Below are positions 15,976-29,845 of a stretch of DNA of 64,000 nt, piece by piece. A model generated the notes under the pieces. It did no database searches, had not been told where the DNA came from, and saw only the letters and a program-made list of their open reading frames with translations. Numbering within the stretch: position 1 is the first letter of the stretch; each line of letters begins with the position of its first letter. The stretch lies in the NCBI RefSeq assembly GCF_011045215.1, contig NZ_CP049201.1, one strand, 5' to 3'. The position numbers and the translations under genes are program-made. The stretch is from Escherichia coli (GTDB lineage Bacteria; Pseudomonadota; Gammaproteobacteria; Enterobacterales; Enterobacteriaceae).

Positions 15976-16441
15976 AACAAACAACTCCTTGTCCGGAGAA
16001 CCCCAACGGGGAAAACGAAATTCAATACCGTCGGTAATGACGAAAGGCAGGCGAGAAGGGCAAATGTACTGAATTTCATGTAATCAATCACACTGCCTGT
16101 GAACACACAGACAGAGAAATACCTTCTGACTCCAGGTCAGAATGTATAACGATTACAAATAGTCATCAGCACATTACACCTCTTGAATTGATGGGTTGCA
16201 TAGAAAATATACACCTTAAGTGTAATTAAAATTTGCGGTTAATCAAAAGAGCGCGGTGGAAAGGGGAATATCTGCCGGGTACAGGAAATGTAAAACGCGA
16301 GCCTGTTTCCGGAAAAATGTATCGTTTGCAGACGAACAAAAATAGCCTGGAAAGCGCCTCGGGGAACGGGAAATTGCCGGGTGAGAATGGTTTTGTTAGT
16401 CGCTAAAGTCGGGCCATCTTATCAACAGGTGACGGATCGCC

Positions 16442-17385
16442 ATGACAAACTTCACGACCAGCACGCCGCATGACGCATTATTTAAATCTTTTCTCATGCA
16501 CCCTGACACCGCGCGGGATTTTATGGAGATCCACTTACCCAAAGATTTACGTGAACTGTGCGATCTCGACAGCTTAAAACTGGAATCCGCCAGCTTTGTC
16601 GATGAAAAATTGCGGGCGCTACACTCCGATATTCTGTGGTCGGTAAAGACCCGGGAAGGCGATGGCTATATCTATGTGGTGATTGAACATCAGAGCCGTG
16701 AGGATATTCATATGGCCTTTCGCCTGATGCGCTATTCCATGGCAGTGATGCAGCGCCATATAGAGCATGATAAACGCGGTTGCTACCGCTGGTCATCCCG
16801 ATGCTGTTTTATCACGGTAGCCGTAGTCCTTATCCCTGGTCCCTGTGCTGGCTGGACGAATTTGCCGACCCGACTACTGCACGGAAAGTTTATACTGCAG
16901 CGTTCCCGCTGGTGGATGTCACTGTCGTGCCAGACGACGAGATTGTGCAGCACCGCAGAGTCGCCCTGTTGGAGTTGATCCAAAAGCATATTCGCCAGCG
17001 CGATCTGATGGGGCTTATCGATCAACTGGTAATATTACTGGTTACAGAGTGTGCTAATGACAGCCAGATAACTGCGCTGTTAAATTACATTTTACTGACT
17101 GGCGATGAAGCGCGTTTTAATGAGTTTATCAGTGAACTTACCCGTCGAATGCCACAACAAAGGGAGCGAATAATGACGATTGCAGAGCGAATTCATAATG
17201 ATGGATGGCTGTTAGGGATGGAAAAGGGGAAAGAAGAAGGGGAACAACGCCTCCTTAGATTGCTTTTGCAGAACGGTGCGGATCCTGAATGGATACAACG
17301 ATATACTGGACTTTCGGCAGAGCAAATGCAGGCATTAGAGCAACCCTTGCCTGAAAGCAAGCGCGATCCATGGATCGAGTACTAA
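16442..17385 (+). pseudogene. rpnD: Rpn (YhgA-like, transposase_31 / PD-(D/E)XK) recombination-promoting nuclease, interrupted by a frameshift
   Basis: Two overlapping ORFs (16442..16978 and 16780..17385) in different frames together span an Rpn-family protein; the N-terminal part ([19 protein letters not shown]...YVVIEHQSR) continues in the second frame ([27 protein letters not shown]) after a frame change near 16775-16800. Confidence 0.7.
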
Positions 17386-17473
17386 TCAGAGACTGATGAC
17401 AAACGCAAAGCTGCCTGATGTGCTACGCTTATCAGACCTACATTACCTCTGCAATCTATTGAATTTGCGCGAT

Positions 17474-17510
17474 TTGTAAGCCGGATAAGGCGTTCACGCC
17501 GCATCCGGTA
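17474..17510. repeat. REP (repetitive extragenic palindromic) element
   Basis: gccggataaggcgttcacgccgcatccgg-type palindrome. Confidence 0.8.
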
Positions 17511-17626
17511 TGAACAAAGCACACTTTGCCTAAGCCATGCTGGAACGTGGCGATGCCCCTGCAAAGATAAAACGAGTCACAGGCGATTCGTGAGAGGAAA
17601 TCAGGGGCCTCGCCACTAATTCGAAT

Positions 17627-19039
17627 TCATTCCATTGCCTGATACACGGCCTCGCCAATTTGCTTCAGTGCTTCGCGATAGGTTTCGCTGAGCGGCAAAG
17701 CGCAGTTGATACGTAGACAATTACGGTATTTGCCGGAAGCCGAGAAAATCGAGCCTGCCGCCACCTGGATTTTCATGCGGTACAGCTGCCGCGCGACGCA
17801 GACCATATCGACCTGTTCAGGCAATTCTATCCACAGTAAAAATCCGCCTTTCGGGCGCGTAATACAGATTTCGCAGGGAAAATATTCCCGTATCCAGCAG
17901 GTATAAAGCGCCAAATTGCGCTGATAGATCTGCCGCATCCGCCGGATATGGCGATGATAGTGACCTTCCAGCACAAACGTTGCCGCCGCCATTTGCGTGG
18001 ACGGTACATTAAAGCTGCTGATGGCGTATTTCATATGCAGCAGTTTATCGTGATAACGCCCCGGTGCGACCCAACCCACGCGCAGGCCTGGTGCAATACT
18101 TTTACTGAACGAGCTGCACAACAGCACTCGCCCGTCGATATCCCAGGAATGAATGGTCCGCGGGCGCGGATACTCCGTTGCCAGTTCGCCGTAGACATCA
18201 TCTTCAAAAATCACAATATCATGACGCTGAGCGAGAGAGAGAACGGCCCGTTTGCGCGCGTCCGGCATAATAAATCCCAGCGGATTATTACAGTTTGGCA
18301 CCAGAATGATGCCTTTAATCGGCCACTGTTCCAGCGCCAGTTCCAGCGCTTCAACGCTGATGCCTGTTTCTGGATCGGTTGGGATTTCAATCACTTTCAC
18401 GCCCATGCCGCGCAGCATCTGCATCGAACCGTAATAACAGGGGGATTCGACCGCGACAATATCGCCCGGTTTACACACCGCCATTAACGCCAGCGACATC
18501 GAGTTATGGCAGCCGCTGGTGATAATGATGTCATCGGCGGTGACCACCGAGCCGCTGTCGAGCATCAGGCGGGCAATCTGCTCTCGCAACACTCGCTGAC
18601 CGGCTAACAAGTCATAACCGAGAACGGTTTGTAGATTATGCTGCACCACCCGGCTTAGCTCCCGCCAGAGTGGTTTCAGGCTGGGCGTTTCGACATCCGG
18701 CGTGCTTTTGCTTAACGGAACAATGGAACTGTCGCTATGCGCCTCCAGCATATCCAGTACCTGATCCCACTGAGTAATTTCCACCGGGCGCTGCACCGGA
18801 CGCGTCATCGGCGGCACTGGCGGTTGGGCTTTCCGTTGTGCGACAAAATAACCCGAACGCGGCTGCGGAGTGATGAGCTTCATCGTCTCCAGCGTCTGGT
18901 ACGCCTGCTGCACGGTGCTGATGCTGACGCCGTGCTCCTGACTTAAGCTGCGCACCGACGGCAATTTCTCCCCGTGACGATACAGCCCTTGCTCAATCCG
19001 CTCGGCAAGTAGAGTCGCCAGATGTTGATAACGCGTCAT
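17627..19039 (-). CDS. yjiR: MocR-type regulator (GntR-family HTH fused to PLP-dependent aminotransferase-like domain)
   Basis: 470-aa ORF; N-terminal wHTH, C-terminal fold-type I aminotransferase-like region; synteny. Confidence 0.85.
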   Translation of the reverse strand: MTRYQHLATLLAERIEQGLYRHGEKLPSVRSLSQEHGVSISTVQQAYQTLETMKLITPQPRSGYFVAQRKAQPPVPPMTRPVQRPVEITQWDQVLDMLEAHSDSSIVPLSKSTPDVETPSLKPLWRELSRVVQHNLQTVLGYDLLAGQRVLREQIARLMLDSGSVVTADDIIITSGCHNSMSLALMAVCKPGDIVAVESPCYYGSMQMLRGMGVKVIEIPTDPETGISVEALELALEQWPIKGIILVPNCNNPLGFIMPDARKRAVLSLAQRHDIVIFEDDVYGELATEYPRPRTIHSWDIDGRVLLCSSFSKSIAPGLRVGWVAPGRYHDKLLHMKYAISSFNVPSTQMAAATFVLEGHYHRHIRRMRQIYQRNLALYTCWIREYFPCEICITRPKGGFLLWIELPEQVDMVCVARQLYRMKIQVAAGSIFSASGKYRNCLRINCALPLSETYREALKQIGEAVYQAME

Positions 19040-19215
19040 GCTGTATTCCTTATTTGGACCATACAGAAAGAAAAACCGGTACAGATGAGGCTAAAAAACC
19101 GGATGCAGATTCTGTTTTAACCTGTCTGTATGTTAAATAAAACTAATATTTGCATCTGTATTGTGAACTGCCAGAAGGCGGATGATGAAGCCTCTGAAAG
19201 ATGAGGAGGCAGCAG

Positions 19216-19380
19216 ATGGAATTTTACGAAAACAAAGCCAAAACGCCGTTTATCAGACTTGTGCAACTCTGGCAGGCGGTGAGGCGTTGGCGGCGGCAAA
19301 TGCAGACCCGACGAGTGTTACAGCAGATGAGTGATGAGCGGTTGAGGGATATTGGGTTACGCAGGGAGGATGTGGAGTGA
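19216..19380 (+). CDS. yjiS: DUF1127-family small protein
   Basis: 54-aa ORF below the cutoff of the supplied track; I translated it by hand (MEFYENKAKTPFIRLVQLWQAVRRWRRQMQTRRVLQQMSDERLRDIGLRREDVE); RBS-like aggagg upstream. Confidence 0.7.
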   Translation: MEFYENKAKTPFIRLVQLWQAVRRWRRQMQTRRVLQQMSDERLRDIGLRREDVE

Positions 19381-19477
19381 TGGGGTATGTTCGTCGCGGA
19401 TAAACCGGATTTCGCTATAACCTTCACAAGGAAGTGGTTATTATTGCGTCATTATTGCTTCACGGAAGGACGCCAGG

Positions 19478-21571
19478 ATGAAAGCCACAGAGGCTCGCCT
19501 ACTCGATTTTTTAAAACGTTCGCAGCAGTTTGTTATTCCCATTTATCAACGCACTTATTCATGGACCGGGCAACAATGTCGGCAACTTTGGGACGACATC
19601 ATTCGTGCCGGAAAGCGTGACGATATATCAGCACATTTTATCGGTTCGGTTGTTTATATAGAGCAGGGATTGTATCAGGTTTCTGGTATTTCTCCGTTGC
19701 TGGTCATTGATGGTCAGCAGCGGCTGACGACCGCAATGTTGCTGATTGAGGCTTTATCGCGCCATCTTGGCGAAGACGAAGTTTTTGATGGCTTTTCGGC
19801 AATGAAATTGCGTAATTATTATTTGCTCAATCCTTATGAGTCCGGCGAGAAAGGTTTTAAATTACTGCTGACCGAGACTGATAAAGACAGTTTACTGGCG
19901 TTAATAAAACAAAGACCAATGCCAGAAAACTATTCCCATCGAATAATGGAAAACTTTACTTTCTTTGATGAACAAATTGCCAAACTCGGTGATGACTTGA
20001 TCCCCTTATGTCGTGGGTTAGCAAAGTTATTAATTGTCGATGTGGCGCTTAATCGTGGTCAGGATAATCCGCAACTGATTTTTGAAAGTATGAACTCTAC
20101 CGGTAAGGCGTTAAGTCAGGCCGATCTGGTGCGCAATTTTATTCTGATGGGCCTCGAACCAGAGCATCAAACCCGGTTGTATGAAGATCACTGGCGTCCA
20201 ATGGAAGTCGCTTTTGGTCAGCAAGGTTACAGCGAATATTTTGACAGTTTTATGCGTCATTATCTGACGGTAAAAACGGGGGAGATCCCTCGGACAGATG
20301 AAGTCTATGAGGCATTTAAACTCCATGCCCGCAGCCAGCGTGTTGCTGAAAAAGGCGTAGATCGGCTGGTTGAAGATATTCACATCTACGCGGAGTATTA
20401 CTGTGCAATGGCATTGGGAAAAGAAAGTGACAAATCGCTTGCTACGGCTTTTCAGGATTTGCGCGAGTTAAAGGTCGATGTGGCGTATCCTTTCTTACTG
20501 GCGCTTTATCATGACTATAAAAATGACGATTTGTCTCACGAAGATTTCCTGAGCATAATTCGTTTAATTGAATCTTATGTTTTCCGCCGTGCAGTATGTG
20601 CAATTCCGACAAATTCTTTGAACAAGACATTTGCCACTTTTTATAAAGTTATTAATAAAGAAAATTATCTGGAAAGTATTCAGGTACATTTTTTGAATCT
20701 ACCTTCATATCGTCGTTTCCCCAACGATGATGAATTTAAACGGGAATTAAAAGTTCGCGATCTCTATAACTTCCGCAGTCGCAGCTACTGGTTACGACGA
20801 CTGGAAAACGATAAACGCAGAGAGCGCGTAGAAGAGTTTACTATTGAGCATATTATGCCGCAGAACGAAAATTTGTCGGCTAAATGGCGTGAAGAGCTGG
20901 GAAGTGACTGGCAACGCATTCATAAAGAATTATTGCATACGTTGGGGGATCTCACTTTAACGCGCTATAACTCCCGCTACAGTGACAGACCTTTCGCGGA
21001 AAAACGCGATATTGAAGACGGCTTTAAACATAGCCCGCTCTATTTGAATATCGGTCTTGGACAGTGCGAAAAATGGGATGAAGCCGCCATTCATGCCCGA
21101 GCCGATCGTCTGGCCGATCTCGCGGTTCAGGTCTGGCAAGCGCCTTCTCTTCCTGAAGAGGTTTTGGCTGTTTATCGGGGACAGCCTGAAAACAAAACCA
21201 GTTACAGCCTGAGTGATTATCCTTTTCTTGCTGATGGTTCGCATAGCCGGGTGTTATTCGATCATCTTCGCGATGAAGTTATGCGCCTGGACGCAGGGAT
21301 CACGCAGGAAGTATTGAAGCTATATATTGCGTTTAAAGCTGAAACGAATTTTGTTGATGTTGTGCCGCAAAAAAGCCGACTGCGATTGTCGCTTAATATG
21401 CAGTTTCATGAACTGGTCGATCCGAAAGGTATTGCCAAAGATGTGACAAATGTTGGGCGCTGGGGCAATGGCGATGTGGAAATTGGTTTCAGTGACCTCG
21501 CACAACTTCCTTACGTTATGGGATTAATTCGTCAGGCATTTGAAAAACAGATGGAGAGCGCGTTGGTCTAA
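19478..21571 (+). CDS. DUF262 (ParB-like NTPase) / DUF1524 (His-Me finger) fusion nuclease, GmrSD-family-like; candidate type IV (modification-dependent) restriction enzyme
   Basis: 697-aa ORF. N-terminal motifs IPIYQRTYSW, LVIDGQQRLTT and FESMNSTGKALSQADLVRNF are DUF262 hallmarks; C-terminal half contains EHIMPQ and GDLTLT (DUF1524-like), followed by a ~170-aa tail with no motif I recognise. Occupies the position of mcrBC in the K-12 immigration control region. Confidence 0.75.
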   Translation: MKATEARLLDFLKRSQQFVIPIYQRTYSWTGQQCRQLWDDIIRAGKRDDISAHFIGSVVYIEQGLYQVSGISPLLVIDGQQRLTTAMLLIEALSRHLGEDEVFDGFSAMKLRNYYLLNPYESGEKGFKLLLTETDKDSLLALIKQRPMPENYSHRIMENFTFFDEQIAKLGDDLIPLCRGLAKLLIVDVALNRGQDNPQLIFESMNSTGKALSQADLVRNFILMGLEPEHQTRLYEDHWRPMEVAFGQQGYSEYFDSFMRHYLTVKTGEIPRTDEVYEAFKLHARSQRVAEKGVDRLVEDIHIYAEYYCAMALGKESDKSLATAFQDLRELKVDVAYPFLLALYHDYKNDDLSHEDFLSIIRLIESYVFRRAVCAIPTNSLNKTFATFYKVINKENYLESIQVHFLNLPSYRRFPNDDEFKRELKVRDLYNFRSRSYWLRRLENDKRRERVEEFTIEHIMPQNENLSAKWREELGSDWQRIHKELLHTLGDLTLTRYNSRYSDRPFAEKRDIEDGFKHSPLYLNIGLGQCEKWDEAAIHARADRLADLAVQVWQAPSLPEEVLAVYRGQPENKTSYSLSDYPFLADGSHSRVLFDHLRDEVMRLDAGITQEVLKLYIAFKAETNFVDVVPQKSRLRLSLNMQFHELVDPKGIAKDVTNVGRWGNGDVEIGFSDLAQLPYVMGLIRQAFEKQMESALV

Positions 21572-21585
21572 CACGGCGAATAATA

Positions 21586-21609
21586 CCCGGTAGCACTGGT
21601 GCTACCGGG
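21586..21609. terminator. Perfect palindrome (cccggtagcac/gtgctaccggg) between the convergent DUF262 gene and symE; likely bidirectional terminator
   Basis: Read directly in the sequence. Confidence 0.55.
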
Positions 21610-21617
21610 TCAATGTA

Positions 21618-21959
21618 TCAGGCAACTTTCTGTTTACCCGCAATCACTCCAATAAACTCCTGCACCTGCTTTTGTTTACGTGCCGACAGTTTGCACACCT
21701 GGCGTAGCGACTGCATCAGTTCGCTCTCTTCGGCGGTGGGTGGTTGGGCGGTGAGGACAATACAGCCTTCCATCACTTTGACATCTACCGCCGTGCCGGT
21801 GGCAAAACCGGCGGCTTCCAGCCACTGACCTTTCAGGGTGATGGCGGGAATACGGCTGTAATCCGGGTAGCGACTCGCATAACTCACGGTTAATTGACGG
21901 TTATTTGCCGGGGAGACTTCTGCTTCGAACGGTTGTGCAATAGAATGCGTGTCAGTCAT
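21618..21959 (-). CDS. symE: SOS-induced toxin-like protein SymE (type I TA system toxin)
   Basis: ORF 21618..22016 trimmed to [34 protein letters not shown]... (113 aa), matching my memory of SymE. Confidence 0.85.
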
Positions 21960-22030
21960 AACTGCTATTCTCCGATAATAGTGATTGTGATTAGCGGTGC
22001 GGGTGTGTTGGCGCACATCCGCACCGCGCT
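21954..22030 (+). ncRNA. symR: Probable SymR antisense sRNA overlapping the symE translation start (coordinates approximate)
   Basis: From established knowledge SymR is cis-encoded opposite the symE 5' end; a stem-loop (gcggtgcgg...ccgcaccgc) at ~21994-22030 on the plus strand could be its 3' structure. Ends not determined. Confidence 0.35.
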
Positions 22031-22034
22031 AAAT

Positions 22035-22054
22035 ACCTGGATATATCATCAGTA
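22035..22054. promoter_or_regulatory. LexA box (acCTGgatatatcatCAGta) in the symE promoter region
   Basis: CTG-N10-CAG with AT-rich centre, about 80 bp upstream of the symE start. Confidence 0.7.
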
Positions 22055-22186
22055 AATACAGGGAAAGTCCAGCTAAAAATAGAATAAAATAGGCAGTTTC
22101 TGGAATAATTTAAATATATTTGCGTGAGTTATGATTGGCATGAAATAATAAAAAGCGCACCGGAAAGGTGCGCCAGAAAATAATGA

Positions 22187-23563
22187 TCAGGATTTTTTAC
22201 GCGAGGCTTTTTTACCCCCGTTGGCTGCGCGTTCAGCTTTGATTTTTTCCAGCAACGCGGCGGCGCTGTTTTCTCCGCTGATTAAATCCGGGTTTTCGGC
22301 CCGCCACTGGGCGGTGAGTTCTCCACGGAACGCTTTTGCCAGGATGGATTGCGTCAGGTTGTTGACGCGGGCTAAGGCGTTGTTGACCTGTTTTTCTATG
22401 GTGTCGGCGTAGGCGAAGAGCTGCTCGACGCGGCGAACGATTTCGGCTTGTTCATAGAGTGAATATAAAGGTACCATTATTGATGAAATTTTAGAAATAC
22501 TTAATGTATAGAGTCCTGCTCCAGATGTGGCGCGATTAATAATTTCTGCCTTACCTTGTGCAGACATTAAATAGAAAAGGAGAAACCTTGGAGAAATTAT
22601 TTCTCTATTTGCCCTAACTTTTATTAAATGGTTTTGATGTACGCACTCTTTGATTTCATCACGCCATAGTGCAGCTCGACCAATTTGATCAAGACTACCA
22701 TTGCCTTCAACTATTAATAAATCTTCATACTCTAATGATACACGATCCAGTTCTTTTTGTTGAACTCCGATTTCGGAAATATCTTCTAATCTCAATTCAT
22801 TTTCATAGACATTTGCCACACGCAAATATGGAACTTGCAACTCAAAATTATTACGTTTCGAGTTTTTTGTAAGACCGCCAATCACTTGGGCTATTTGACT
22901 AATATTGAAATAATTAATTGGGGAGATATTTGTAAGTTTCCCACTTACAGCCGCAGCCAATACCGCCTGACGAAAACGTTTCATGATTTGTGGGATTTTC
23001 TCAAGGCGTGCTTTGGTGCTGTCTACTTGCGCCAGCAGCGTATCGAGTTTTTCCGCAATTATTTTTTGCTCGGCAAGTGGTGGCAACGGAAGTAGGGTAT
23101 CTTGAAGTGTCCTGGAAGAAAGATGCTTCACCGTAACCGAGGACGTATTTGCATTGATTGCGGATAAATATCCTGGTAAGGCATGATAGAAAAATCTTTT
23201 ATTGTATTTGTCTTCCTGAACTTCGATTTTACATACTCGTTGATTTAACAGAGCGGGCTCCGAGCGCCATATAGTTGTATTAAAATCACCATCCATTCCC
23301 ACGATTAAGTCTTCGGGATATACCCAATATCCCTCAGGAATTTGCCCCGAGTAATAAGTCGATGTATTACCTTTAAGAACATCACGAATTCTAATTAATG
23401 GTACACCTTCTTTACGATTATTAAATTCTGCCGACTTAAAAGCAAAACCGTTTGTGATGTTTGCTACGGAATCCATTGGAATACGTAACCAGCTCTCATG
23501 GATTGAAAGTAACCCATTGATATTTTGCTCAATTAATTCTTTTGATGTTGAGTTGAAACTCAT
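22187..23563 (-). CDS. hsdS: Type I restriction-modification specificity subunit HsdS (type IA frame, divergent TRDs)
   Basis: 458-aa ORF; central conserved region (LAEQKIIAEKLDTLLAQVDSTKAR) and C-terminal region (EQAEIVRRVEQLFAYADTIEKQVNNALARVNNLTQSILAKAFRGELTAQWRAENPDL) match my memory of EcoKI HsdS, whereas the two variable domains are AT-rich and different. Confidence 0.85.
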   Translation of the reverse strand: MSFNSTSKELIEQNINGLLSIHESWLRIPMDSVANITNGFAFKSAEFNNRKEGVPLIRIRDVLKGNTSTYYSGQIPEGYWVYPEDLIVGMDGDFNTTIWRSEPALLNQRVCKIEVQEDKYNKRFFYHALPGYLSAINANTSSVTVKHLSSRTLQDTLLPLPPLAEQKIIAEKLDTLLAQVDSTKARLEKIPQIMKRFRQAVLAAAVSGKLTNISPINYFNISQIAQVIGGLTKNSKRNNFELQVPYLRVANVYENELRLEDISEIGVQQKELDRVSLEYEDLLIVEGNGSLDQIGRAALWRDEIKECVHQNHLIKVRANREIISPRFLLFYLMSAQGKAEIINRATSGAGLYTLSISKISSIMVPLYSLYEQAEIVRRVEQLFAYADTIEKQVNNALARVNNLTQSILAKAFRGELTAQWRAENPDLISGENSAAALLEKIKAERAANGGKKASRKKS

Positions 23564-25149
23564 TCCTTCACCCCACCAAACGCTTCTTCCAGCAACTGAC
23601 GCTGCGCATCCGCCTCATCGCTCGCCCCCAGTTCACGCATCAGCGCATCCAGTTCAGACAGCGCCTGCACCAGCTCGCCCATCGCTTCTGCCGCTAATAC
23701 ATCCGGCTCCGGCAGGCTGTCGGCATCAATACTGTCTTTATCTTTCAGCCAGGAGATATCCAGCGAATCGGATTTCGCGGTGCGGATCCACTCGCGGCTG
23801 AACTTACGCCAGCGGCTGGTAGCCAGGTGCTGGTCGGTGTTTTTGTTCTCTTCGCTGTCGGCAACTTCCGTCTCTTCGGCGTTAAAACTCCATTCCCCTT
23901 CACTACGCGGGCTTAAACCGTGCGGGTCTTCGCCATACACGCGCTCAAACGGCTGCAAATACTCGTCGGTAAACGGCGTGCGTTTACCAAAGCTCGGCAT
24001 ATTGGTCCGCAGGTCGTACACCCACACGTCATCGGTGCAGTTCTTATCCTGATGCGGGTTCGCCACTGTACCTTTGGTAAAGAACAGCACGTTGGTCTTC
24101 ACGCCCTGCGCGTAAAAAATACCGGTCGGCAGACGTAGAATGGTGTGCAGATGACACTTATCCATCAGGTCACGACGAATGTCGGTGCCTTTGCCGCCTT
24201 CAAACAGCACGTTATCCGGCACCACCACCGCCGCACGACCGCCGGGATGTAGCGTTTCGATAATATGCTGCATAAAGCACAACTGTTTGTTGCTGGTCGG
24301 GTGAACAAAGGTGCGGGTAATGTTGGTGCCTGCGGCGCTGCCAAACGGCGGGTTAGTGGCGACAATATGCGCCTTCGGCAGGTTTTCGCCGTCGCTACCC
24401 AGGGTGTTGCCCAGACGGATTGCGCCGCCGTGGTCGAGGTTGCCTTCAATATCGTGCAGCAGGCAGTTCATCAGCGCCAGACGACGGGTGCCGGGCACCA
24501 GTTCGAGGCCGATAAACGCGCGGTGGATCTGGAAATCCTGCGTGTCGCCATCAAGGTCGTCCAGATCGTTAGTCTGCGACTTAACGTAGCGGTCGGCTTC
24601 AATCAAAAAGCCCGCCGTACCTGCTGCCGGGTCCTGCACCACTTCGCGCGGCTGCGGTTTCAGCAGATGAATAATGGTTTTAATCAGCGGACGCGGGGTG
24701 AAGTACTGGCCCGCGCCCGACTTGGTTTCGTTCGCGTTCTTCTGCAACAGCCCTTCGTACATATCGCCGAAGTCATCGCGCGACTTACCGTGCGCACCGT
24801 TGTACCAGTCCAGTGAATCCATATTGCTGACCAGTTCGGTCAACTGTTTCGGCTGGGTAATGGTGGTGTTGACGTTCTGGAACACCGCCTGCACCAGCTT
24901 TTGATTGTCGGCGCCCAGATGCACCAGCAGGTTACGGTAGAACTGCAACTGCTCCTGGCCGATGCGGGATTTCAGGTCATCCCAGCGGTAGCCTTCCGGC
25001 AGGTATTCCGCTTCCTGCCCGGTCTCTTTACACATTTTCAAAAACAGCAGCGAGGCGAGTTCATTGACGTAGTTTTGATAGGAAACGCCGCCATCGCGCA
25101 GGTTGTCGCACAGCTTCCACAGCTTGGCGACCAGATCGTTATTGTTCAT
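23560..25149 (-). CDS. hsdM: Type I R-M DNA methyltransferase subunit HsdM
   Basis: 529-aa ORF, N6-adenine methyltransferase with NPPF motif (ATNPPFGSAAG); 4-bp overlap with hsdS. Confidence 0.9.
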   Translation of the reverse strand: MNNNDLVAKLWKLCDNLRDGGVSYQNYVNELASLLFLKMCKETGQEAEYLPEGYRWDDLKSRIGQEQLQFYRNLLVHLGADNQKLVQAVFQNVNTTITQPKQLTELVSNMDSLDWYNGAHGKSRDDFGDMYEGLLQKNANETKSGAGQYFTPRPLIKTIIHLLKPQPREVVQDPAAGTAGFLIEADRYVKSQTNDLDDLDGDTQDFQIHRAFIGLELVPGTRRLALMNCLLHDIEGNLDHGGAIRLGNTLGSDGENLPKAHIVATNPPFGSAAGTNITRTFVHPTSNKQLCFMQHIIETLHPGGRAAVVVPDNVLFEGGKGTDIRRDLMDKCHLHTILRLPTGIFYAQGVKTNVLFFTKGTVANPHQDKNCTDDVWVYDLRTNMPSFGKRTPFTDEYLQPFERVYGEDPHGLSPRSEGEWSFNAEETEVADSEENKNTDQHLATSRWRKFSREWIRTAKSDSLDISWLKDKDSIDADSLPEPDVLAAEAMGELVQALSELDALMRELGASDEADAQRQLLEEAFGGVKE

Positions 25150-25225
25150 TGTGAGTTCCGTAAATTAAGCAGCGGCCCAAATTTATCGGGCCGCAGAAGA
25201 AGAAATTGCCGGGAATGATACCGTG

Positions 25226-28200
25226 TCAGGCCAGCTCGTCCCAGATGTAATCGCTGAATTTGCCCAGCAGGGTATCGAGATTATCGTCAAAGGTTCTTTG
25301 CAGCATCGCCTTCCCGCCGCGACGGTGGAAGTTGCCGGTTTTGAACACATCGTCGTCGAGCACCACTTTCTCTTTCAGCGCCTGCGCTAAACGATCGAGC
25401 CAGCTTAATTGCTCGCTGCTCCAGTCGTTTTCGCCCTTAATGCGCGTCAGCGCGTGATCGACACGTTCCTCAAACGGTTTCAGCGCATCTCCCACCGCAG
25501 CGCGGCGAATATGACCGATCAGCCGGGCGGCGATATCTTCATTGCGCGTCTCTTTCCACGCTTTGCGCAGGGAAGATTCCTCAAAGTGCTGGCGGTCAAA
25601 CCACTCCTGTAGCTCGACCAGCCCTTTACGGGTGAGATCGCGCGGGCGATTGATCACCGCCTGCAATGCCGGCTGTGCGTTCGGGGAACGTTGCACCAGC
25701 GAGTCAAAGGCTTCGAGGAAATCCTGCGGTGTGTCGTAATCACCGTACAGCGATTTTACGCTCACCACTTCATCGTCGATATCGAGGAAGATCGGCGCAT
25801 CATTCAGGTTATTGATGTCGGTTTTCAACTTTTCCAGACGGGCGATAAAGCCAGGCAGTTTGTTAAAGACCTCGGCGCTCCAGTGCGGCCCTTTTTCCCG
25901 CAGGCGCGAGGCGAAGCCGTTAAAGTTCACCCCCGCCGCATCCTGGCATAGCTCATCCAGACGACGCACCTGTTTATCTATCGTTTCGCTGCGGTCACGG
26001 TTAAACGTGGCCAGGCCGACGATGCGCTGGAGCTTCGCCACCAGTTGTTCATGGCTGTGCTCGGCAAAGCTGCGGCCGTCCGCTTCGGTGATTTTATAGG
26101 TTTCTGAATCGGTAATTTCGTTGACCAGCGTTTGCAGTTCCACCTTCGGACGCACCACCACCGGACGCATGGTGTCGACGCTCTCCAGCGTGCTGTAGAT
26201 ATCGACACAGTCGAAAATCTTAAAGCTGGTTTTATTCACGTCCGGGCATAAGCGTGTGGCGCGGCCTTTCATCTGCTCGTACAGAATACGGCTGCGTACT
26301 TTACGCAGGAACACGATGTTACAGATCGACGGAATATCGACGCCGGTCGTCAGCAGGTCGACGGTTACCACGATATTGGGCAGCCGCTCTTTATTGAAGC
26401 GGGTGATCATGGTCTGCACTTTGCGCGCGTCTTTATCGGCATCACCGGTGATCTTGATGATCGCGTCGTGCTCCAGTTGCGGATACTTTTTCTTGAACGC
26501 GGTACGCAGCTCTTCCACCACCATATCGGCATGAGCATTGGTGACGCAGAAGACCAGCGTTTTTTGCGACCCGGTCGGATCAAGGTAATTGGTGAGTTCA
26601 TTACAAACGGCGCGGTTAAACGCCGGGATCACCAGACCACGGTTAAAGTCGGCGACCTCAAAATCCTGATCGTCTTCCAGGGTGTCATTGATCACTTCTC
26701 CCTGCGGGCTGATGCGCTCTACCTGTTCGCCTTTGGAGAGATAAACCCCTTCCTGGGCGTTGCGGGTGGTGATTTGAATCGGCGGATCCTGGTCGATCAG
26801 AAAACCGTCGATAACCGCGGTACGGTAGGTATAACGGTAAACCGGCTCGCCGAAAATCTGCACCGTATGCAGCGCCGGGGTGGCGGTGAGGGCGATTTTT
26901 ACCGCATCGAAGTGATCGAGAATGCGACGATAGGCAGAAACGTAATCCAACTGACTGCGGAACTGCAGTTCGCCTTCGGTCTGCTCTTTATCGAGAATGT
27001 AGCCACGATGCGCTTCGTCAACAACGATACAGTCATAACGGGCCACCGGCATTGGTTCATCTGATTGCAGGGTGCGTTTCACCAGCGACTGTACGGTGGC
27101 AACGTGAATTTTGGTGCTGTCTTCCGGGAATTTATCCGTCAGCCCTTTAATGTCGAAAATGCTGTTGAAGGTGTCGCCGTTAATACGCGTATCTTCAAAC
27201 GCGCCCAGCGCCTGCTCGCCAAGAGAACGGCGATCCACAAGGAAGAGAATGCGTTTAAAACGCTGAGACTGGATCAGGCGGAACATCATGGCAATTGCGG
27301 TGCGGGTTTTACCAGTACCGGTCGCCATCGCCAGCAGGATCTCTTGTTGACCCTTGACGATTGCCTTTTCAACCGCGCGGACAGCATCTTCCTGATAATA
27401 ACGCAGGCCCAGCTCGCTCATGCCAGGGTTGTCGGCAAACCACTGATTCTGTTTTTGCGGTTCGCTGCCGAGCATTTCCAGCAGCTCTTCCGGGCGATGC
27501 CACTCGGGTAAGGCTTTCGACATATTGCGGGTATCACGCACGTCGCGATACCAGATGCCGCTTTTAGTCTTCATCGCTGCGCGATATTCGCGCCCGTTTG
27601 TGGAGTAGCAGAAGGGGATTTTAAACCGTTGTTGGCCGCTGGTGTCCTGCCAGCTGGTTTCATACTCCGGCACCGCTTCATGCACTTCATCCGGTGAGTA
27701 ATGCTCAAGCAAGGTTTCCCGCAGGAAGCCATTATCGAAACATTTACTGTAGCGATACGACTCATTGAGCTTGGCGGGAACGTCGATATTTTTACGTTTC
27801 GCCTCTACCACCGCGATGGGTTTGAGGCCGACAAACAGCACATAATCCGCAAAGCCCTGATTACCCATTTCATCTTTCCCGGTCGGCCATTCGGCAATGG
27901 CTTTATTGACGCCGGGTTCCGGGCGCGCGCCTTTGGAGAAACGCAGGGTTTTGCTGTCGGCCTGCCAGCCCGCTTTACGCAGTTGGGCATCAATCAGGAA
28001 GCGGCTCTCTTCTTCGCTGAGGTTGAGCGTGCGCTTGATGGCCTGATCGGTAATTTCTTTGTGGTAAGCCTTACGTTCCTGTTCTGTCTGTTTGGCCAGC
28101 TCCGCGTTTTTCTCGGCGAGCTGTGCTTCAAGCGCCGCAAGGCGGGCCTGGGTTTGCGCTTCGGTTTCCTGCTGTTTACCTTCCAGAATGGCGATATAGC

Positions 28201-28738
28201 CGTTCAGGGCAACCAGCTTTTGCTGCTGCGCTTCGACTTCTGCCTGACTCTGCGCTTTTTCTCGCACCTGCTGTTCAAGCTGTTGTTTTAGCGTCAGCAC
28301 TTCCTGGTGATAGAGGTTTTCACCACGTTCCGGCAACACAAACACCGGCACCGAGAAGTCATAATCTTTAGTGACCAGACGGTAGTACCAGACAGCCAGG
28401 CGAAACCCGAGTCGCAGGCACATCTGGGCATCGTCGAGATCGTTATGATATTCGTGCACCGCCTGGTTACCAATGCGGCGTAATTTGTGGAATACAGAGA
28501 GAATGTTGTCATCAACGAAGGCGATTTTGCCGAGTTCGCGCAGGAGATCGTGTTGATTCTCACAAGGGGGGATGTTGAGTAACAGACCAAGATGTTTCGC
28601 TGTGGCTTCGCCAAACATACGCATTTTAATCAGCGTCGTGTTGGGATCATCCGGGTAGTTATTCTCCGCCGCACAGGCGATGGCATAAGTGAAGTCGTTG
28701 ACGCCCTTCAGGAATTCAAAATTGGATTTATTCATCAT
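25226..28738 (-). CDS. hsdR: Type I R-M restriction endonuclease/helicase subunit HsdR
   Basis: 1170-aa ORF with SF2 helicase motifs (LLAMATGTGKTRTA Walker A, DEAH-like VVDEAHR) preceded by an N-terminal nuclease region. Confidence 0.9.
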   Translation of the reverse strand: MMNKSNFEFLKGVNDFTYAIACAAENNYPDDPNTTLIKMRMFGEATAKHLGLLLNIPPCENQHDLLRELGKIAFVDDNILSVFHKLRRIGNQAVHEYHNDLDDAQMCLRLGFRLAVWYYRLVTKDYDFSVPVFVLPERGENLYHQEVLTLKQQLEQQVREKAQSQAEVEAQQQKLVALNGYIAILEGKQQETEAQTQARLAALEAQLAEKNAELAKQTEQERKAYHKEITDQAIKRTLNLSEEESRFLIDAQLRKAGWQADSKTLRFSKGARPEPGVNKAIAEWPTGKDEMGNQGFADYVLFVGLKPIAVVEAKRKNIDVPAKLNESYRYSKCFDNGFLRETLLEHYSPDEVHEAVPEYETSWQDTSGQQRFKIPFCYSTNGREYRAAMKTKSGIWYRDVRDTRNMSKALPEWHRPEELLEMLGSEPQKQNQWFADNPGMSELGLRYYQEDAVRAVEKAIVKGQQEILLAMATGTGKTRTAIAMMFRLIQSQRFKRILFLVDRRSLGEQALGAFEDTRINGDTFNSIFDIKGLTDKFPEDSTKIHVATVQSLVKRTLQSDEPMPVARYDCIVVDEAHRGYILDKEQTEGELQFRSQLDYVSAYRRILDHFDAVKIALTATPALHTVQIFGEPVYRYTYRTAVIDGFLIDQDPPIQITTRNAQEGVYLSKGEQVERISPQGEVINDTLEDDQDFEVADFNRGLVIPAFNRAVCNELTNYLDPTGSQKTLVFCVTNAHADMVVEELRTAFKKKYPQLEHDAIIKITGDADKDARKVQTMITRFNKERLPNIVVTVDLLTTGVDIPSICNIVFLRKVRSRILYEQMKGRATRLCPDVNKTSFKIFDCVDIYSTLESVDTMRPVVVRPKVELQTLVNEITDSETYKITEADGRSFAEHSHEQLVAKLQRIVGLATFNRDRSETIDKQVRRLDELCQDAAGVNFNGFASRLREKGPHWSAEVFNKLPGFIARLEKLKTDINNLNDAPIFLDIDDEVVSVKSLYGDYDTPQDFLEAFDSLVQRSPNAQPALQAVINRPRDLTRKGLVELQEWFDRQHFEESSLRKAWKETRNEDIAARLIGHIRRAAVGDALKPFEERVDHALTRIKGENDWSSEQLSWLDRLAQALKEKVVLDDDVFKTGNFHRRGGKAMLQRTFDDNLDTLLGKFSDYIWDELA

Positions 28739-28925
28739 TGTTATTAATCCATTGCTGTGTGGGCCTGTCCAAATATTTAAGGCCCATAGCGCCTTATCTT
28801 AGCTTTCTGTACCTTTCCGGGCAATGACCACGGTCACAGCAACTGACTCATTTCTAACGTGTTCGTCTATTTTGGTAGTGTTATAGTAGCCGAAAAACAT
28901 CTACCTGATTCTGCAAGGATGTACT

Positions 28926-29839
28926 ATGACGGTTCCTACCTATGACAAATTTATTGAACCTGTTCTGCGTTATCTGGCGACAAAACCGGAAGGTGCAGCC
29001 GCGCGTGATGTTCATGAGGCTGCCGCGGATGCATTAGGACTGGATGACAGCCAGCGAGCGAAAGTCATTACCAGCGGACAACTTGTTTATAAAAATCGTG
29101 CAGGCTGGGCGCATGACCGTTTAAAACGTGCCGGGTTGTCGCAAAGTTTGTCGCGTGGCAAATGGTGCCTGACTCCTGCGGGTTTTGACTGGGTTGCGTC
29201 TCATCCCCAGCCAATGACGGAGCAGGAGACGAACCATCTGGCCTTCGATTTTGTGAATGTCAAACTTAAGTCACGGCCGGATGCCGTCGATTTAGATCCG
29301 AAAGCCGACTCTCCCGATCATGAAGAACTTGCAAAGAGCAGCCCGGACGATCGGTTAGATCAGGCGCTAAAAGAGCTTCGTGATGCGGTGGCTGATGAGG
29401 TTCTGGAAAACTTATTGCAGGTTTCTCCTTCGCGCTTTGAAGTCATTGTTCTGGATGTTTTGCATCGCCTGGGGTATGGCGGCCACCGTGATGATTTGCA
29501 GCGTGTTGGCGGTACTGGAGATGGTGGCATCGATGGTGTGATATCGCTTGATAAACTTGGCCTGGAGAAAGTTTATGTTCAGGCAAAACGTTGGCGAACA
29601 CTGTAGGCAGGCCAGAATTACAGGCATTTTACGGCGCACTGGCTGGGCAAAAGGCGAAACGTGGGGTGTTTATTACCACTTCTGGATTTACGTCTCAGGC
29701 GCGTGACTTTGCTCAATCCGTCGAGGGTATGGTGTTGGTTGATGGGGAACGCCTGGTGCACTTAATGATCGAAAACGAAGTAGGGGTTTCTTCACGTTTG
29801 TTGAAGGTGCCGAAACTGGATATGGACTATTTTGAGTGA
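28926..29839 (+). pseudogene. mrr: Mrr modification-dependent restriction endonuclease, apparently frameshifted
   Basis: Two ORFs (28926..29606, 226 aa; 29591..29839, 82 aa) in different frames jointly cover a ~304-aa Mrr; the frame changes near 29595-29606 inside the catalytic domain (…VQAKRW then stop, versus ANTVGRPELQAFYGAL… in the other frame). Confidence 0.7.
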
Positions 29840-29845
29840 AATATC

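Follow-up and report, generated by a model that had tools for sequence, protein, structure and literature searches.

A type IA restriction-modification locus of Escherichia coli with a mosaic HsdS combining an EcoBI-type first target-recognition domain and a second domain found in Escherichia albertii

Analysis of a 64,000-nucleotide stretch of Escherichia coli DNA (hereafter referred to as the window) revealed an hsd locus that very probably encodes an intact type IA restriction-modification system of the EcoKI/EcoBI family, the mosaic specificity subunit of which, HsdS, is predicted to read TGA in one half of its target and, in the other, a half-site unlike that of either EcoKI or EcoBI. The HsdS allele represents a new, uncharacterised combination of target-recognition domains (TRDs) within a thoroughly known system, and an ordinary, textbook kind of variation.

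Gene content and chromosomal setting of the hsd locus

The genes hsdR, hsdM and hsdS lie in this order, with hsdR upstream of hsdM and the stop codon of hsdM overlapping the start codon of hsdS by 4 bp (ATGA), and all three are full length, their lengths being equal to those of the EcoKI genes [Table 1]. The product of hsdS was matched by the Pfam domain Methylase_S (PF01420) in two stretches (E=3e-33) and, in a phmmer search, by the EcoKI HsdS chain 2Y7C_A over residues 21-458 (E=3e-93); an identical copy of the protein is annotated as restriction endonuclease subunit S (WP_097315459.1). In line with the original prediction, which had described both partner subunits as EcoKI-like, HsdM is identical to its EcoKI counterpart from MG1655 at 515 of 529 residues (97%) and has an intact NPPF motif, while HsdR is identical at 1158 of 1170 residues (99%) and retains both the DEAH box (VVDEAHRG) and the nuclease motif (ADYVLF...VVEAKR). 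The hallmark of type IA enzymes is the complementation in vivo of their subunits with those of EcoKI and EcoBI, along with cross-reaction of antibodies (PMC12707154, PMC3874165). Here, membership in the family follows from the resemblance of HsdM, HsdR and the conserved regions of HsdS to their EcoKI and EcoBI counterparts, and from the allelic position of the genes.

In a collinear genome carrying an identical hsdS, the gene order reads yjiS, a GmrSD-type gene, symE, hsdS, hsdM, hsdR, mrr and yjiA, and the open reading frames (ORFs) of the window correspond to it. The region between yjiS and yjiA is known as the immigration control region (PMC3874165), and the locus thus occupies the usual chromosomal hsd site of E. 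coli. A terminator-like, G+C-rich hairpin with a T run behind it begins 13 nt past the stop codon of hsdS and is the likely point at which the hsdMS transcript ends. The symR antitoxin RNA is located opposite the start of symE, in antisense orientation, as in K-12. The place of mcrBC is taken by an uninterrupted ORF of 697 codons, the product of which harbors GmrSD_N, GmrSD_C and DUF5655 domains; replacement by an Eco94GmrSD-type gene is among the known alternatives at the immigration control region (PMC12707154). In a near-identical RefSeq genome, the PGAP annotation splits this GmrSD region into a pseudogene and a 387-aa coding sequence.

Table 1 Features of the hsd locus and its surroundings, with positions in the window
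Feature	Position	Strand	Basis or remark
Rpn-family gene	16442-17385		
GmrSD-type gene	19478-21571	+	GmrSD_N, GmrSD_C and DUF5655 domains
symE	21618-21959	-	directly downstream of hsdS, as in K-12
symR antitoxin RNA	21954-22030	+	Rfam RF01809, 90.9 bits
Terminator-like G+C-rich hairpin, then T run	22154-22174	-	consensus scan only
hsdS, type IA restriction-modification specificity subunit, 458 aa, ATG start	22187-23563	-	ORF, Methylase_S, EcoKI HsdS match
C-terminal conserved region, second dimerisation helix and tail (hsdS nt 1111-1377)	22187-22453	-	identity to EcoKI
TRD2, C-terminal target-recognition domain (hsdS nt 636-1110, aa 212-370)	22454-22928	-	divergence from EcoKI/EcoBI
Central conserved region, first dimerisation helix (hsdS nt 481-635)	22929-23083	-	identity to EcoKI/EcoBI, no indels
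TRD1, EcoBI-type N-terminal target-recognition domain (hsdS nt 1-480, aa 1-160)	23084-23563	-	identity to EcoBI
hsdM, N6-adenine methyltransferase subunit, 529 aa	23560-25149	-	97% aa identity to EcoKI HsdM
hsdR-hsdM spacer, 76 nt	25150-25225	-	alignment; 200 nt in K-12 and B
hsdR, translocase/endonuclease subunit, 1170 aa	25226-28738	-	99% aa identity to EcoKI HsdR
mrr	28926-29840		

Domain structure and mosaic origin of HsdS

The domains of HsdS follow the order S1-D1-S2-D2, as in type IA enzymes, and its conserved regions are devoid of indels relative to EcoKI and EcoBI. The central conserved region (residues 160-211) is 86.5% identical to that of EcoKI and 92.3% identical to that of EcoBI; the corresponding values for the C-terminal conserved region (residues 371-458) are 98.9% (87 of 88 residues) and 95.5%, the DNA of this region being 97.4% identical to that of K-12. 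The type IA frame is thus as conserved as originally proposed, and the two variable domains, expected at roughly residues 1-160 and 200-370, emerged from the alignment as blocks spanning residues 1-159 (TRD1) and 212-370 (TRD2). The identity of TRD1 is 18.9% to EcoKI and 96.2% to EcoBI, and that of TRD2 is 22.6% and 21.4%, respectively. That both domains would differ from those of EcoKI was therefore borne out, the resemblance (19% and 23% of residues) extending to the generic fold only; a high identity to the EcoKI TRDs, designated beforehand as the finding that would speak against the prediction, was not seen. Not recognised in the original prediction was that TRD1 is no novel domain, being identical to that of EcoBI at 153 of its 159 residues; TRD2 is at 21-23% identity to the EcoKI and EcoBI domains. 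An LPLPPLAEQ motif precedes the central conserved region. The C-terminal conserved region is preceded by VPLYSLYEQ, which is not of the usual PLP type and is kept in all relatives of TRD2. A proline-rich motif ahead of the helical regions of HsdS has been described (PMC3874165).

Both TRDs are AT-rich, with G+C contents of 37.9% (TRD1) and 33.7% (TRD2; 22% at third codon positions) compared to 47.7% in the central region, 55.4% in the C-terminal region, 56.7% in hsdM and 50.8% in the window as a whole. This agrees with the composition originally noted for the domains. The TRDs of EcoKI (36.7% and 34.2%) and EcoBI (36.2% and 31.7%), however, are equally AT-rich, so that AT-richness is a trait of the family rather than a mark of this allele or a sign of its divergence, and a recent foreign origin based on composition was rejected on the same grounds. 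A phase-variable hsdS was likewise rejected, as neither tandem nor simple repeats were found within hsdS, and as a search of the 19-30 kb interval of the window for a shufflon-type arrangement yielded no inverted hsdS copies and no significant inverted or direct repeats.

At the DNA level, TRD1 is 96.7% identical to its counterpart in REL606 and 99.0% identical to that of E. coli Z142-3. Among 5426 complete E. coli genomes, 114 carry this TRD1, and in about 107 of these it is partnered with the TRD2 of EcoBI. In Z142-3, the same TRD1 is joined to a third, unrelated TRD2, a type found in seven genomes, and a single genome among the 5426 combines TRD1 with the TRD2 of the window. To judge from these alignments, TRD1 would be the already known TGA domain of EcoBI, and only half of the specificity would be new. 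Since E. coli alleles combine TRD1 with three different TRD2s, and since the TRD2 of the window is found behind another TRD1 in E. albertii (see below), the exchange of TRDs that had been suspected from the sequence of HsdS is directly demonstrable.

A map of mismatches along hsdS indicated that recombination has made the allele a mosaic, built of three tracts. From nt 1 to about nt 500, the sequence follows the Z142-3/EcoBI lineage, and from nt 625 to nt 1142 it follows the E. albertii lineage. Between them, in the central helix (nt 504-603), lie seven substitutions that are absent from EcoBI, Z142-3, EcoKI and E. albertii and are common to the variant allele described below; this private tract suggests an unsampled donor or a third exchange. 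The zone of recombination between the two TRDs is thus the central conserved region. The surrounding island is mosaic as well. The side comprising hsdM, hsdS, symE, the GmrSD-type gene, yjiS and yjiR (16188-25211) is 99.3% identical to that of other carriers of the identical hsdS, and the side comprising hsdR and mrr (25213-29440) is 96.9% identical to theirs, which places a further recombination breakpoint at the hsdR-hsdM spacer. Despite a 100% identical hsdS, the window as a whole is about 98.5% identical to NZ_OZ197100.1; it is 99.97% identical to GCA_910665095.1 over 13.4 kb.

Relatives of TRD2 and predicted target of the enzyme

Even at blastn sensitivity, TRD2 DNA was detected in only one of the 5426 complete E. 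coli genomes, and that genome carries the identical allele. The exact HsdS protein is nevertheless indexed in 96 blocks of an assembly collection; 59 blocks contain a variant that differs by five substitutions. Carriers of the protein or of its variant fall into two island haplotypes, distinguished by GmrSD in the one and McrBC in the other. The allele is therefore not a singleton, it segregates at low frequency and is maintained in nature.

Outside of E. coli, a full-length protein search followed by alignment retrieved TRD2, with two amino acid differences, in a type IA HsdS of E. albertii (P0139, 431 aa) that harbors a different TRD1. Over nt 625-1142 of hsdS, the two species differ at four positions (99.2% DNA identity), compared to 87.7% DNA identity in the central region and ~89% in the core genes flanking the island. 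Type IA alleles from Klebsiella michiganensis, K. variicola, K. spallanzanii, Citrobacter braakii and Salmonella enterica contain relatives of TRD2 at ~80% amino acid identity, which are partnered there with eight or more different TRD1s. The K. michiganensis locus displays the same hsdR-hsdM-hsdS-symE order. In K. michiganensis CP048108.1 (L005, 8381-9078), an IS1 element is inserted at the 3′ end of an hsdS with a related TRD2 and replaces the last residues of the protein, yielding a product of 479 instead of 455 residues. At 45-60% amino acid identity, relatives of TRD2 are found in many phyla and in other type I frames. Taken together, the sequence comparisons indicate that the TRD2 lineage circulates among enterobacterial type IA alleles and is rare in E. 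coli.

None of these relatives led to a characterised enzyme. Among PDB sequences, only EcoKI and generic HsdS structures were retrieved; a tblastn search of plasmids with TRD2 returned nothing above 56% identity and nothing characterised; and none of the entries retrieved by a protein search with TRD2 alone bore a name beyond "subunit S". As an indirect comparison with EcoDI and StySPI, TRD2 DNA was matched in no E. coli genome but that of the carrier of the allele, and the protein searches yielded, for Salmonella and above roughly 45% identity, only unnamed, uncharacterised alleles of the TRD2 family (P0160 and others). In the literature on TGA-N8-type motifs and on the methylomes of E. coli, K. 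michiganensis and E. albertii, no assignment of a half-site to this TRD2 was found.

In the type I family, HsdS assembles with HsdM and HsdR, each TRD accounts for one half-site, and the helices of HsdS set the spacing between the two (PMC3874165, PMC12707154). Should the system of the window be active and follow this family mechanism, one HsdS and two HsdM subunits would form the methyltransferase, and the addition of two HsdR subunits would yield the ATP-dependent endonuclease. Each globular TRD would read one half of a bipartite site, and the two conserved helices would form an antiparallel coiled coil fixing the distance between the methylated adenines. The target of EcoBI is TGA N8 TGCT, and the half-site read by the N-terminal TRD is placed first for well-characterised sites in Table 1 of the same compilation (PMC3874165). 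Given the likeness of TRD1 to that of EcoBI, the first half-site is thus predicted to be TGA. The methylation interval is 8 for all of the type IA enzymes listed (PMC3874165, Table 1; PMC12707154, Table 1) and, with helices unchanged in length, a spacing of 8 bp is expected here. The predicted site would accordingly consist of TGA, up to eight unspecified bases and a second half-site, with the methylated adenine of the opposite strand pairing with the T at position 12 of the motif and 8 bp separating the methylated bases. As TRD2 is unrelated to that of EcoBI, the second half-site should differ from EcoBI's.

Two other readings of the specificity bear on this prediction. TRD1 differs from the EcoBI domain at six of 159 residues, and its closest relative, that of Z142-3 (99% DNA identity), is itself uncharacterised. 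These six substitutions could in principle change the TGA half-site, leaving a functional allele of which neither half matches a characterised enzyme. We consider this unlikely, as the domains are 96% identical and the changes mostly conservative (E/D, A/S, T/A), a situation in which a change of specificity would be unusual; type I TRDs that are far more divergent can keep the same half-site. Conversely, with an EcoBI-like TRD1 and with all TRDs sharing one fold, the enzyme might have the specificity of EcoBI or of EcoKI despite the differences in sequence. This appears extremely improbable: TRD2 shares 21-23% of its residues with the TRD2s of EcoBI and EcoKI, and TRD1 19% with the TRD1 of EcoKI, as is seen between domains that read different targets. 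Compared for isospecificity with EcoBI, TRD1 was similar (96.2%) and TRD2 was not (21.4%); compared with EcoKI, neither domain was (18.9% and 22.6%). A TGA half-site combined with a second half-site distinct from those of EcoBI and EcoKI is thus the reading that we retain.

The near identity of TRD2 in E. coli and E. albertii, as opposed to ~89% in the core flanks, together with the TGA-type TRD1, raises the further proposition that the enzyme would recognize a site of no characterised type I enzyme, that the half-site read by TRD2 would be new to TRDs, and that the module was recently transferred between the two species. We hold this proposition with about as much doubt as conviction. The almost identical TRD2 cassette in the two species is the mildly notable point of the present analysis, the allele being a clean case, found in nature, of TRDs shuffled as modules at hsd, with one module near-exact across a species boundary. 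Its practical value is modest: the hsdS allele predicts which incoming DNA the lineage restricts and which methylation a plasmid needs to enter it, and reading the methylome would add one more assignment of a TRD to a half-site.

Integrity of the island and comparison with known systems

The spacer between hsdR and hsdM is short. An element of ~124 bp, which we take to resemble the ERIC/IRU consensus, is missing from it, and is present in K-12, in REL606 (B) and in other carriers of the same hsdS. Matches to the junction were found in 934 complete E. coli genomes, and all of the best-listed ones have kept the element; the short, 76-nt form is also found in GCA_910665095.1. In EcoKI, a second hsd promoter is located between hsdR and hsdM (PMC12707154). 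The missing element thus falls where the hsdMS promoter lies in EcoKI, and the expression of the system in this strain is not assured.

Other genes of the island are interrupted. In mrr, a 1-nt deletion near position 29596, changing TGGCAGAAC to TGGCGAAC just past the QAK catalytic motif, results in a frameshift that, compared with K-12 and isolate 23S01245-7, removes the C-terminal ~80 residues. The deletion may reflect a real pseudogene, hinting at some decay of the island, or a sequence error. A second 1-nt deletion, at position 16777 (CCGGCG to CCGCG), divides the Rpn-family gene into two ORFs relative to GCA_910665095.1; in NZ_OZ197100.1, the annotation of the homologous gene likewise shows a frameshift.

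These features bring up the alternative that the system, although present, lacks function or expression in this strain, either due to an incompatible hybrid HsdS or to the loss of hsdMS transcription with the 124-bp element. Consistent with this alternative are the 76-nt spacer in place of the 200-nt one, a short form that none of the top-ranked complete genomes displays, the frameshift in the adjoining mrr, the 1-nt deletion in the Rpn-family gene, and the fact that a simple consensus scan of the spacer of the window found no promoter on the gene strand. The same scan, however, finds none in K-12 either, where the system is functional, and is thus uninformative. Furthermore, the three hsd ORFs are full length with their catalytic motifs kept, many assemblies combine the identical HsdS with a spacer of the normal 200 nt, and the conservation of TRD2 suggests that the domain works in type IA frames of several genera. 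Loss of function or expression is therefore quite improbable in our estimation, and an intact, active type IA system remains the preferred reading.

Natural and laboratory precedents for such an HsdS are StySQ and StySJ, hybrids of the Salmonella type IA systems StySPI and StyLTIII, in which a crossover in the central region joins the N-terminal TRD of one allele to the C-terminal TRD of another, and of which StySQ was first reported in 1976 (PMC3874165). Whereas StySQ and StySJ were made and characterised experimentally, the hybrid described here, which comprises at least three tracts, is read from its sequence. Compared to EcoKI of E. coli K-12 (type IA, AAC N6 GTGC), the system of the window has closely similar HsdM and HsdR subunits and HsdS conserved regions, the same gene order, and the same mrr and symE/symR neighbours. 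It differs from EcoKI in both TRDs, in the presence of a GmrSD-type gene instead of mcrBC, and in a spacer devoid of the ERIC-like element. EcoBI of E. coli B, also type IA, occupies the same locus with HsdM and HsdR of the same family, and its HsdS is 96% identical to that of the window in TRD1 and 92-96% identical in the conserved regions. The EcoBI subunit is longer, however (474 aa compared to 458 aa), and its TRD2 is unrelated beyond the fold (21% aa identity). The type IA HsdS P0139 of E. albertii (e.g., EJI9012205.1), finally, has a different TRD1 and a central region that is only 87.7% identical at the DNA level, and shares with the allele of the window the same TRD2 cassette and the same downstream symE and GmrSD-type neighbours.
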